Below, piece after piece: positions 15,301 through 16,853 of a DNA stretch of 25,204 nucleotides. The notes beneath the pieces were generated by a model. It was given only the letters and a program-made list of their open reading frames with translations. It was not told the origin of the DNA and ran no database searches. Source of the stretch: Nitrospira sp. (GTDB lineage Bacteria; Nitrospirota; Nitrospiria; Nitrospirales; Nitrospiraceae); the NCBI GenBank assembly GCA_031421455.1, contig JANOOS010000225.1, positions 1-25,204 on the forward strand. The letters run 5' to 3'. Position numbers and translations under genes: made by a program. The first letter of the stretch is position 1. Every line of letters begins with the position of its first letter.

Positions 15301-16853
15301 TCGTTGGCGAGCACATTCACGGTGATGGCCCCGGTGTCTTCAGACACCGCCACGCGATCGCCGATGGCCACAGGCGCATCGTTGACACCGGTAATCGTCA
15401 CTGTCACGGTCGCCGTGGACTGCACGCCGGCACTATCTACGACGGTATAGCGGAACTGATCGGTCGCCGTTTCACCAGCTGGCAGCACCTGGTTCGGCGA
15501 GTAATAGATCATCGGAACCCCGCCGCTGGAGGCAAACGCCGTCGTTCCAACCGTCCCGGTCCTATCGATGGACAGAACCCGCAGCGCATCGCCGGCATCC
15601 GGATCCCTGTCGTTCGCCAGGACGTTGATCAGAATGGCTTGATGTTCTTGAGCCGACGCGCTGTCCGCGACGGCCACCGGACCATCGTTCGTGCCGGTGA
15701 TCGTTACCGACACCACCGCAGTCGAAGTGGCGCCGTCCGTATCCCGCATCGTGTAGCTAAAGTTCTCCGTTACCGTCGCTCCGGCTTTGAGTGAGTTGAA
15801 GGCTTGCCCGACTGAATAGACCAAGTTGGTCCCATTGGGGGCTATGGATACAGTCCCTTGCAGGCCTTGGCTGCTCACCCCCACGATCGTCTTCGTATCG
15901 CCGGCGTTCGCATCCGTATCGTTCGCGAGCACATCGATCACAATGTCCAGACCGTTTTCCTGCGCCGAAGCCGTATCGGCCACGGCGACCGGCGCTGCGT
16001 TCGCGGAGACGACACCGCCGGCGATGGAACCGGCATTGACGATAGGGAGTGGCCCATTGTTGACGGTCAAGGCGCCGACCAGATCGGTCGCTATTGCCGT
16101 GAACGAGGCTAACGATCCTGCCGCGTTAATATTATTGAGCGTGAGGCGCCCATTTCCATCGGCGTTCGTAGTAATGATCAGTGCCGTGCTAGTATCCGTT
16201 CCGGTCAGACGCACATCCCAGAGCGCGCCGTTCTTCACGACTTCGCCTGTGCCTGGTCCGGTGAGGCTGAACGTGGCGACGGTGCTGTCTGCGTCTCGCA
16301 GCATCAGTGGCGTCTGGCCGGTCTTGCCTGGCACGGAACCGAACTGCCAGGCCACGTTGACGGTGCCGCCGACGGCGACATTGTTCGTTTCGCTGTTTTC
16401 GACAGTCGCATTGGCGTTGTCGACTTTGGCGAGCAACTGATAGGTTCCGGGGTCAAGCTGGGTTGAGATCGTGAACGGCACAGTAAAATCTTTCGATTCT
16501 CCGGCACTGACCACACCACCACTCGCGGCAGTACCGATCAGGATATCGGACACATCGAGCGTCGAGTCCTGTGAGATGTAGACCCCGACCTCAATTGTAT
16601 TAGCATCCTGATTACCTTGGTTCACCACCTGGACGATGGCAGAGCCTGCGCTCCCCTCAAGCGCGGTATTCGGCAGAACGGAAGATTGGATGACGCCGCT
16701 CAGATCGGCAGCCAGTAAGATGCGCGATTCAAGAGGCTCAAGCTGAAAGGCACTGACAGACCGATGCGTGCATGCTCTTGCTCGTTGACGGCGCCAGCCC
16801 GCCAGGTAGACACGAAGCGACTGTAAGAATGATGGGTGATCGATTGTGCGCAT
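11835..16853 (-). CDS. Large secreted/surface protein (~1672 aa): LEPRxLL-type leader, CARDB-like domain, 11 Ig/cadherin-like (VCBS/Big-type) repeats, RTX Ca-binding repeats, T1SS-type C-terminal domain
   Basis: ATG 16853 has a GGAG RBS 8 nt upstream (the ORF track starts at TTG 16937). Motifs: FQLEPLESRILLAAD; GTYQLLAKVDNANATVENSETNN; repeated N.APVA..D....E.....I.VLAND.D; GGxGxDxLxGG; DKIDLSQIDAN...GDINGDRVVDFQI. Confidence 0.9.
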   Translation of the reverse strand: MRTIDHPSFLQSLRVYLAGWRRQRARACTHRSVSAFQLEPLESRILLAADLSGVIQSSVLPNTALEGSAGSAIVQVVNQGNQDANTIEVGVYISQDSTLDVSDILIGTAASGGVVSAGESKDFTVPFTISTQLDPGTYQLLAKVDNANATVENSETNNVAVGGTVNVAWQFGSVPGKTGQTPLMLRDADSTVATFSLTGPGTGEVVKNGALWDVRLTGTDTSTALIITTNADGNGRLTLNNINAAGSLASFTAIATDLVGALTVNNGPLPIVNAGSIAGGVVSANAAPVAVADTASAQENGLDIVIDVLANDTDANAGDTKTIVGVSSQGLQGTVSIAPNGTNLVYSVGQAFNSLKAGATVTENFSYTMRDTDGATSTAVVSVTITGTNDGPVAVADSASAQEHQAILINVLANDRDPDAGDALRVLSIDRTGTVGTTAFASSGGVPMIYYSPNQVLPAGETATDQFRYTVVDSAGVQSTATVTVTITGVNDAPVAIGDRVAVSEDTGAITVNVLANDQDPDAGDTKTVTAVDGNGRPSQIVITSANTSTFTTFVVTPAIPAIRGAVSVAPDGQGVVYTPTQALQTLRAGQVLTETIFYTMRDAAGATSSSSLVVTITGVNDAPTAVADQVTIGKNAAPVSITMLANDTDPDAGDTKTVVALDTAGLQGTVALAPDGTSLIYTVGDAFLNLPQGGTATETFSYTIQDSAGVTSTATVTVVIVSDNIAPVAVADVATATENGGPVMIDVLANDLDPDAGQGKSVLSLTNTGLRGTVANAPGGMGIIYTVGQAFQQLRAGETATEQFTYTMVDALGAQSATTVTVTVTGVNDVPVAVGDSAAASEDSAPVLLNVLNNDRDADVGDTKQVLSLNTTGLRGTATIAEGGQGVIYSAGNVFQSLQAGQTATERFNYTVQDGSGAISTATVTVIVRGANDAPVANVDTLTVTEDASNVLLGVLANDTDADAGDTKTIVSVDGTGLSGTVRLATNGAGILYSAGSAFQSLIAGETTTETFTYTMRDRAGALSTARVTLTVTGVTDGPKAVADHAVAAEDGGPITINVLANDTNDANPGGALTIDSVDGSGQFGGYFVIGSATGNTQYGFAPGFPRLLGQVSIAADGQSILYTPLQSLNQGEVGVDTFRYTLAGGSTGVVTVTVTGVNDAPSAVHDSATVAADSAPLTIDVLANDTDPDTRVVPPQPPIVDLLDVVVDATPVDIPDTKTVVSVDGSGLQGSVTIAVGGGAVTYTAGGSLLNLTFGQTATETFTYTMQDSLGLQSTATVTVTVTGTNQTPVAAADSATATENSAPVTINVLANDSDADISAGDSFSIVAINTTGLQGTASVNGGNIVYTVGNAFQSLKAGAPATETFSYTIQDSKGAQSTGTVTVTVVGANDGPVAVNDGLTISEDAAALALNVLANDTDLDAGDTKTIVSLDTTGLQGTATIAANGSGVVYTVGQAFQYLDSGAALDTFTYTMRDSSGAFSTARVTVTVLGAPEAPPAGSIMGTTGDDIITTANTNDTIYGQAGDDNVSSGGGADTIFGGAGRDTIDGGDGNDVLVGGAEDDDLTGGLGADTFQYALVSDSTVTVQDKINDFSVSEGDKIDLSQIDANTAAVGNNAFVIASGFSGVAGQLVLTLNAGGYLVQGDINGDRVVDFQIDVRTNDILSATNFLL
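12372..16001 (-). repeat. 11 tandem ~104-aa Ig/cadherin-like repeats
   Basis: Eleven units counted, each starting N/T-x-x-P-x-A-x-x-D and containing VLAND/LNND and [F/I]xYT; repeats 3, 8 and 9 carry insertions. Confidence 0.88.
16704..16748 (-). other. LEPRxLL / planctomycete-extracellular-type N-terminal leader motif
   Basis: FQLEPLESRILLAAD at residues 36-50, preceded by the Arg-rich WRRQRAR; there is no hydrophobic Sec signal h-region. Confidence 0.8.

Follow-up and report, generated by a model that had tools for sequence, protein, structure and literature searches.

We analyzed a 25,204-nucleotide stretch of a Nitrospira sp. genome (assembly GCA_031421455.1, contig JANOOS010000225.1, positions 1 to 25,204; hereafter, the window), in which a gene for a 1672-residue protein with RTX (repeats-in-toxin) motifs adjoins a divergently transcribed cassette of putative export genes. 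The protein opens with a 50-residue leader carrying a LEPR-XLL box, a curated orphan motif that heads thousands of very large bacterial surface proteins. Our analysis indicates that this leader is a basic, non-Sec and non-Tat tag of the LEPR-XLL class, probably cognate to TolC-linked exporters that have no ATP-binding cassette (ABC) transporter and are built on a fusion of an RRE (the PqqD-like recognition element of ribosomally synthesized and post-translationally modified peptide [RiPP] pathways), an M50 metalloprotease and an HlyD-type adaptor, with the divergent GAF-HlyD / RRE-M50-HlyD / SecA-like / HlyD / TolC cassette as its probable exporter at this locus. The relevant features, in window positions, are as follows:

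11835..16853, minus strand: candidate substrate gene, 1672 aa, comprising the leader, a CARDB domain (residues 54-160), 11 cadherin-like/Big_9/VCBS repeats, RTX repeats and a C-terminal domain
16862..16865, minus strand: Shine-Dalgarno GGAG, with an 8-nt spacer to the ATG at 16853 (read from the sequence)
16704..16853, minus strand: leader, residues 1-50 (translation, composition and hydropathy)
16704..16748, minus strand: LEPR-XLL box, residues 36-50, F-Q-L-E-P-L-E-S-R-I-L-L-A-A-D (NF012209 and anchored alignment)
11838..12308, minus strand: RTX nonapeptides and serralysin-like secretion domain, about residues 1516-1672 (PF00353, 49.8 bits; NF035945, 74.9 bits)
17771..19684, plus strand: GAF-HlyD adaptor, with which the divergent cassette opens (profile matches)
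19750..21897, plus strand: RRE(PqqD-like)-M50 metalloprotease-HlyD fusion (profile matches, homologue alignment and predicted fold)
21899..23881, plus strand: truncated SecA-like ATPase, with the DEAD motor and preprotein cross-linking domain only (profile matches; the start at 21899 is our reading, the listed open reading frame [ORF] beginning at GTG 21803)
23878..24735, plus strand: small HlyD-family adaptor with a Sec signal (profile matches and hydropathy)
24878..25204, plus strand: TolC-family outer-membrane factor, start only, cut by the window end (profile matches)

The start of the 1672-residue protein is shared in position by its close Nitrospira homologues, and the 50 residues quoted in the initial annotation are the exact translation of 16853..16704 on the minus strand. 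Residues 1-20 are weakly amphipathic, residues 21-35 form a basic linker, and the box follows; through residue 49, the leader holds eight K+R against three D+E. Its 12-residue Kyte-Doolittle means peak at 0.78, whereas the Sec signals of the window HlyD, the window TolC and an HlyD encoded on another contig of the genome (C293) reach 2.38-2.85, which bears out the earlier statement that it has no Sec hydrophobic core. Hydropathy reveals no Sec-type h-region in the leader, no Tat-type h-region follows the RR at 21-22 by either sequence or hydropathy, and the residues before C28 (A-R-A) form no lipobox. With neither a hydrophobic core nor a lipobox, the Sec, Tat and lipoprotein readings were rejected on sequence. 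A double-glycine reading, in which a peptidase-containing ABC transporter would process the leader, was likewise rejected, because the aligned leaders have no conserved GG and profile scans of the cassette found neither a C39 domain nor an ABC transporter.

The box itself is recognized by the NCBIfam profile NF012209.1 (LEPR-8K / LEPR-XLL), a short model of 24 positions, which matched residues 36-55 at 20.5 bits in the protein search (curated cut-off 17). When the entire 2.54-Mb, 483-contig genome was searched in six frames, as the initial annotation had proposed, the window box scored 26.1 bits (E 2.7e-5) and was the single match above the cut-off, the other match being weak (10.9 bits, on C293); among 14 control genomes, none yielded an over-cut-off match. 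As in the family at large, the site is N-terminal on a large, repetitive protein of extracellular type. The assignment to LEPR-XLL therefore stands on a match above the curated cut-off, and only its parse shifts: the conserved family box corresponds to L41-E42-S43-R44-I45-L46-L47-A48-A49-D50, in which Ser replaces the usual Pro, so that the canonical "LEPR" is LESR at 41-44 and the "LEP" at 38-40 is an upstream phi-E-x element. In an anchored alignment of 54 leaders, E42 and R44 fall on the invariant or near-invariant positions of the family. The further label of a planctomycete extracellular motif did not hold, with Pfam PF07595 finding no match on the 1672-residue protein at E<=0.01. Contigs from related strains, recovered over the leader-coding region from metatranscriptome libraries (two runs of one study, in which contigs from RNA libraries are no proof of transcription), differ within the box by synonymous changes only, replacements being found in the linker and the mature domain.

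The 54 leaders were gathered from cassette-adjacent or NF012209-positive genes of several phyla. They all begin with a variable and often amphipathic segment of 3-91 residues, which leads into a net basic stretch and then the box. The box was N-terminal in 54 of 54 inspected cases and follows the consensus phi(-3) E(-2) x L E P R phi L L S A D. With the alternatives P/S and S/A written out, it reads phi-E-x-L-E-(P/S)-R-phi-L-L-(S/A)-A-D. The central E is invariant, R is retained in 53 and the first L in 50 of 56 rows (two of these rows being spurious), and sequence conservation collapses past the box Asp. The regular expression used for the box was widened after inspection of the giant ORFs, the strict form having missed M/I at position 0, H for R and S/Q for P. 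Leaders at seven alpha- and gammaproteobacterial loci (L077, L080, L083, L091, L095, L096 and L097) also open with MAFPF (MAYPF in L096), so that a further conserved N-terminal element precedes the LEPR box there.

The substrate gene directly adjoins the cassette at 17771-25204, as would be required of a cassette cargo, and the same gene-plus-cassette arrangement recurs across phyla. Aligning the M50-HlyD protein recovered 80 related loci from Nitrospira, Beta-, Gamma- and Alphaproteobacteria, Desulfobacterota, Rokubacteria, Omnitrophota, Myxococcota and Phycisphaerae, in which a SecA-like gene is present in 77, GAF-HlyD in 75 and the small adaptor in 63; a separate homology search with the M50-HlyD protein returned only close Nitrospira relatives among the 120 matches listed. 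A giant ORF with the box at its visible N-terminus lies beside the cassette at 13 of the 80 loci, and at most of the others the giant ORF runs off the 10-kb flank. Whole-genome searches with NF012209 covered 15 of the genomes that bear the cassette, which span at least five phyla; in addition to the 13 loci above, 14 of the 15 carry an over-cut-off match on the cassette-adjoining frame. These matches score 20.9-38.7 bits and sit at the N-terminus of open frames of 4610-15301 aa, which stop shortly ahead of the cassette in all but one genome and begin directly behind it in the other. Each of these genomes holds only one to six over-cut-off matches in all. The fifteenth, a fragmented Phycisphaeraceae metagenome-assembled genome, could not be placed.

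The converse question was addressed with evenly drawn phylum samples of 201 Nitrospirota, 201 Planctomycetota and 401 Pseudomonadota genomes. Among the Nitrospirota, 19 genomes were M50-HlyD-positive and 15 LEPR-positive, with 12 in common; the corresponding numbers were 58, 35 and 32 for Planctomycetota and 97, 89 and 75 for Pseudomonadota. The initial annotation had named, as grounds for abandoning its proposal, a motif common in genomes lacking the operon; instead, LEPR matches occur in only 3/182, 3/143 and 14/304 M50-HlyD-negative genomes of the three phyla, respectively. Odds ratios for the association range from 57 to 102, although the sampled genomes are mutually related, so that Fisher p-values overstate their independence and are indicative only. 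Nearly all LEPR-only exceptions score at or below 21 bits, many in short frames: the three Nitrospirota matches reach 16.7-17.9 bits in frames of 40-172 aa, and 13 of the 14 Pseudomonadota genomes have matches of 20.7 bits or less. In 11 of the 12 common Nitrospirota genomes, the LEPR match and the M50-HlyD gene are 0.2-7 kb apart, and only sub-threshold matches are near that gene in the twelfth. In some Planctomycetota, 7-17 tagged proteins, each 300-2000 aa long, are encoded at scattered sites, which suggests that one machine serves many substrates in these organisms.

A second class of cassette, without SecA, was recovered from the same Nitrospira genome. Contig C293 (L003:352-8943) encodes an HlyD, an X-HlyD and an M50-HlyD paralogue 27% identical to that of the window, followed by a DUF4347/cadherin protein of more than 1376 aa, whose N-terminus reads ...SLLSLESRIMFDGAA. 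Both LEPR-type proteins of this genome, on the window contig and on C293, thus adjoin an M50-HlyD gene. As an internal control, a 2519-aa RTX protein with 23 RTX stretches on contig C214 (L005:2092-9651, minus strand) has neither a box nor an M50-HlyD neighbor. The C293 arrangement is repeated at 11 other Nitrospirota loci, with an outer-membrane-factor gene upstream wherever the flank was inspected, and no SecA-like gene was found within ~8-10 kb of C293 or of the other 11. Leaders at these 11 loci follow SLL(S/T)LE(P/Q/S)R(L/I)MFD(A/G)AA, of which C293 shares the LE(P/Q/S)R(L/I)MFD(A/G)AA part. Similarly, the Omnitrophota locus L023 has no adjacent SecA-like gene in the 10 kb downstream, and a tagged 6179-aa frame lies just after its M50-HlyD gene. 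In all six of the M50-HlyD-positive Nitrospirota genomes with no listed NF012209 match, which contribute six of the SecA-less Nitrospirota loci, LESRLMFDAAAA-type leaders were found just downstream of the M50-HlyD gene; NF012209 therefore undercounts the tags, and the tag–cassette association in Nitrospirota appears to be close to complete. Because SecA-less cassettes also adjoin LEPR-type leaders, the invariant partner of the tag is M50-HlyD with its adaptors, not the truncated SecA. The co-occurrence first proposed, with a truncated SecA/M50 operon, is thus seen in three phyla, with M50-HlyD rather than the truncated SecA as its common partner.

In leaders that precede DUF4347 passengers, box position 6 is aromatic (ILF, ILY, LMF or IMF) beside both cassette classes (L032, L059 and L081 in one; L003 and L112-L115 in the other). 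Covariation of leader variant with cassette class was considered as evidence of specific recognition and dropped, the aromatic variant being present beside class-1 cassettes as well (L032, L059 and L081); this variant may depend on which passenger family follows and not on the cassette.

The M50-HlyD protein was examined at the sequence and structure levels. Across 35 homologues from both classes, the HExxH motif (H210, E211 and H214) and the NxxPxxxxDG motif of site-2-type proteases (N304/P307/D312) do not vary, and proteolysis is therefore probably part of M50-HlyD function. The daptide HExxH protease model NF041824 aligns with residues 18-405 at 175.5 bits, short of its cut-off of 300. The N-terminal 130 aa are predicted to fold as beta-beta-beta-alpha-alpha-alpha (predicted local distance difference test [pLDDT] 82), and Foldseek aligned this model with TbiB1 and lasso B1, both leader-bound RREs, and with PqqD at TM (template modeling) scores of 0.68-0.74 by target and E of 0.013-0.035, which points to an RRE-like fold in the model. 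No PDB match was obtained at E<=0.001, the top Foldseek rows being a sub-domain of carbamoyltransferases and the RRE rows weaker. When M50-HlyD residues 1-430 were modeled in complex with leader residues 1-62, the interface score ipSAE was 0.49 (0.40, 0.49 and 0.51 across runs) against 0.17 for the best control, with at least 89% contact agreement between runs and a partner pLDDT of at least 59. In benchmarking, 58 of 80 solved complexes attained the ipSAE mark, as did 2 of 110 mismatched pairs; at values of 0.60 or lower, only 7 of the 80 solved complexes did so, along with both of the passing mismatches; the model was rated as weak support for capture of the leader by the RRE domain.

Taken together, the link between the tag and the M50-HlyD cassette is strongly supported, and the orphan tag is very probably an address label for the cassette and perhaps also a cleavage handle. 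As a working mechanism, the PqqD-like RRE of M50-HlyD would capture the box in the cytoplasm as an added beta-strand. Where the motor is present, the truncated SecA, with its preprotein-binding domain, would feed the unfolded chain into a duct formed by the M50 membrane domain, three HlyD-type adaptors and TolC. The M50 active site would remove the leader at or just past the box, and the Ig/cadherin and RTX modules would then fold outside with calcium. Extending this beyond the window, we tentatively propose, at somewhat less than even confidence, that LEPR-XLL serves as the N-terminal address for a separate and widespread diderm secretion pathway. Its RRE-M50 adaptor fusion would read and remove the leader in the manner of RiPP enzymes and, whether or not a truncated SecA is present, would drive proteins, some of them longer than 15,000 residues, through HlyD and TolC without an ABC, RND (resistance-nodulation-division) or MFS (major facilitator superfamily) pump. 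The pathway would fall into two or more classes, among them a SecA-dependent and a SecA-less one, and leader variants would match the classes.

Several observations weigh against these proposals, in addition to the relatedness of the sampled genomes noted above. Export through the cassette, its direction, capture of the box by the RRE and leader cleavage by M50 are what we infer, and the translocation pore is putative. In each of the two larger samples, 22-26 M50-HlyD-positive genomes have no over-cut-off LEPR match. The SecA-less class shows that the SecA-like motor is not universal. The RRE fold matches have poor E-values, the Pfam PqqD profile scores 21.2 bits on M50-HlyD, under its gathering threshold of 23.4, and the leader-complex model is itself weak. 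Finally, the substrate carries an RTX/serralysin-like C-terminus in a genome with two classical type I systems. Hence, of the initial annotation's central claim that the leader is the targeting signal of the adjacent system, co-occurrence and adjacency sustain the functional link to the cassette, and the targeting role is one that this link would fit no better than tethering or processing.

The C-terminal region of the 1672-residue protein provides the most substantial alternative. With its nonapeptides (PF00353) and a secretion domain matched by NF035945 over residues 1547-1659 (74.9 bits, a domain-level score far under the full-family cut-off), it has the C-terminal hallmarks of an RTX/serralysin substrate and reads as a classical type I-type signal. 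The protein could thus leave through a classical ABC type I system, with the LEPR leader serving as a last-to-leave tether or quality-control handle that M50 clips to release or mature the protein, in the manner of LapA and LapG. No ABC transporter cognate to the RTX signal is encoded in the window; elsewhere in the genome, contig C331 (L126:5789-9579) encodes a PrtD-type ABC transporter that is truncated at the contig end, together with HlyD and TolC, and contig C258 (L127:332-4487) an HlyB-type ABC transporter (1027 bits), HlyD and the C-terminal fragment of an RTX protein. RTX repeats also occur somewhere in many cassette-adjacent giants, and a preprint on LEPRxLL giants argues, by inference, for their C-terminus-first export (bioRxiv 10.64898/2026.03.19.712371). 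However, the tag tracks the ABC-less cassette and not ABC systems. Among 33 cassette-adjacent giants, whose extreme C-termini vary, only 12 contain at least two strict RTX nonapeptides within the final 600 residues. Export by this route would also leave no role for the conserved SecA-like motor, three adaptors and TolC of the cassette, and the 2519-aa RTX protein on C214 has neither box nor M50-HlyD neighbor. We consider this explanation unlikely, though the strongest of those competing with export by the cassette.

A less likely prospect still is that the leader is read by the preprotein cross-linking domain of the truncated SecA instead of the RRE, its basic N-region acting as the n-region of a signal peptide. 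The retained SecA_PP_bind domain (89.6 bits, Pfam), the strongly basic leaders and the SecA-like gene in 77/80 class-1 loci would suit such a role; nevertheless, the 12 SecA-less cassettes (C293 and the 11 other Nitrospirota loci) and the Omnitrophota locus L023 all adjoin LEPR-type leaders or tagged frames, and canonical SecA reads a hydrophobic core, which these leaders do not have, leaving this reading improbable. That the motif is incidental, whether a chance match, an odd Sec, Tat or lipoprotein signal, or a propeptide for intramolecular folding that has nothing to do with the neighboring genes, seems very improbable indeed. The brevity of the profile, a window score only 3.5 bits over the cut-off and weak matches in short frames of unrelated genomes would allow for it, whereas the uniqueness of the match in this genome and its absence from the controls, its invariably N-terminal position, the strong co-occurrence and adjacency with the cassette, and the missing h-region, lipobox and Tat-type h-region after RR all speak against it. 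We therefore retain recognition of the tag by the ABC-less cassette as the preferred reading.

Comparison with known systems places this reading in context. Double-glycine exporters are TolC-linked tripartite assemblies with a protease of their own, which reads an N-terminal non-Sec leader and cuts it off; by analogy, we regard them as the closest working parallel to the LEPR cassette. They differ in their ABC transporter, C39 peptidase, GG/GA site and peptide cargo; in place of the components of colicin V CvaAB-TolC, the window cassette has an M50-type intramembrane metalloprotease fused to an adaptor and candidate cargo of 1.7 to more than 15 thousand residues. RiPP enzymes capture leader peptides through RRE (PqqD-like) domains, and with these systems, including the daptide family of NF041824, the cassette shares the RRE-like fold at the M50-HlyD N-terminus and the HExxH protease model match; however, the "core" here is a giant secreted protein rather than a modified peptide, and the protease is fused to a periplasmic adaptor. 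LapA-type adhesins are giants secreted by type I ABC transporters, with an N-terminal retention module cut by the periplasmic cysteine protease LapG at a TAAG site. Common to both are a giant Ig/cadherin/RTX surface protein and an N-terminal element acted on by a dedicated protease, but the ABC transporter, the periplasmic cysteine protease and the TAAG site are all absent here.

In the earlier literature, the gene set of the window cassette is the "secondary SecA_DEAD" locus described in silico by Kamneva, Poudel & Ward in 2015 (PMC4452313) as GAF/HlyD, Peptidase_M50/HlyD, SecA_DEAD, HlyD and sometimes OEP. That study names no cargo or signal, does not contain the terms "LEPR", "cargo" or "adhesin", and uses "substrate" once, in a general sentence; the SecA-less class found here is absent from its description. 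NF012209, in turn, is a curated family carrying no assigned function or partner. The window protein shares with it the over-cut-off, N-terminal box on a large, repetitive protein of extracellular type, and differs in the Ser that replaces the family Pro and in its small size, 1672 aa against 4600-15300 aa for cassette neighbors elsewhere. The same N-terminal domain heads Cag_663 and Cag_665 of Chlorobium chlorochromatii, giants with a 24-aa LEPRxLL domain that are said to be without any known transport signal and were detected outside the producer cell (bioRxiv 10.64898/2026.03.19.712371), and tagged proteins are therefore exported. Similarly truncated SecA domains are fused to giant Omnitrophota proteins, with a suggested role in their own export (West-Roberts et al. 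2023). Among the papers that we searched, none connects the LEPR-XLL tag to the M50-HlyD cassette. The link turns the export of Sec-less giants across two membranes into a testable problem; if true, it would define a new leader-guided, ABC-less secretion route and supply an annotation rule for predicting cassette cargo, including the scattered smaller substrates of Planctomycetota.

Two further features of the giants lie near their extreme C-termini. Among the 5'-open giant ORFs of L014-L078, those at ten loci carry phi-(D/N)-W-(S/G) ~5-15 residues from the end, and at six Burkholderiales loci the motif SW(V/L)xDFV...RNPNAxLR lies near the C-terminus; such short motifs may represent a second signal or an anchor. 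Elsewhere in the window, at 6490-7175 on the minus strand, two small overlapping ORFs have translations that by eye resemble a nucleotidyltransferase / HEPN-type (toxin-antitoxin-like) pair.

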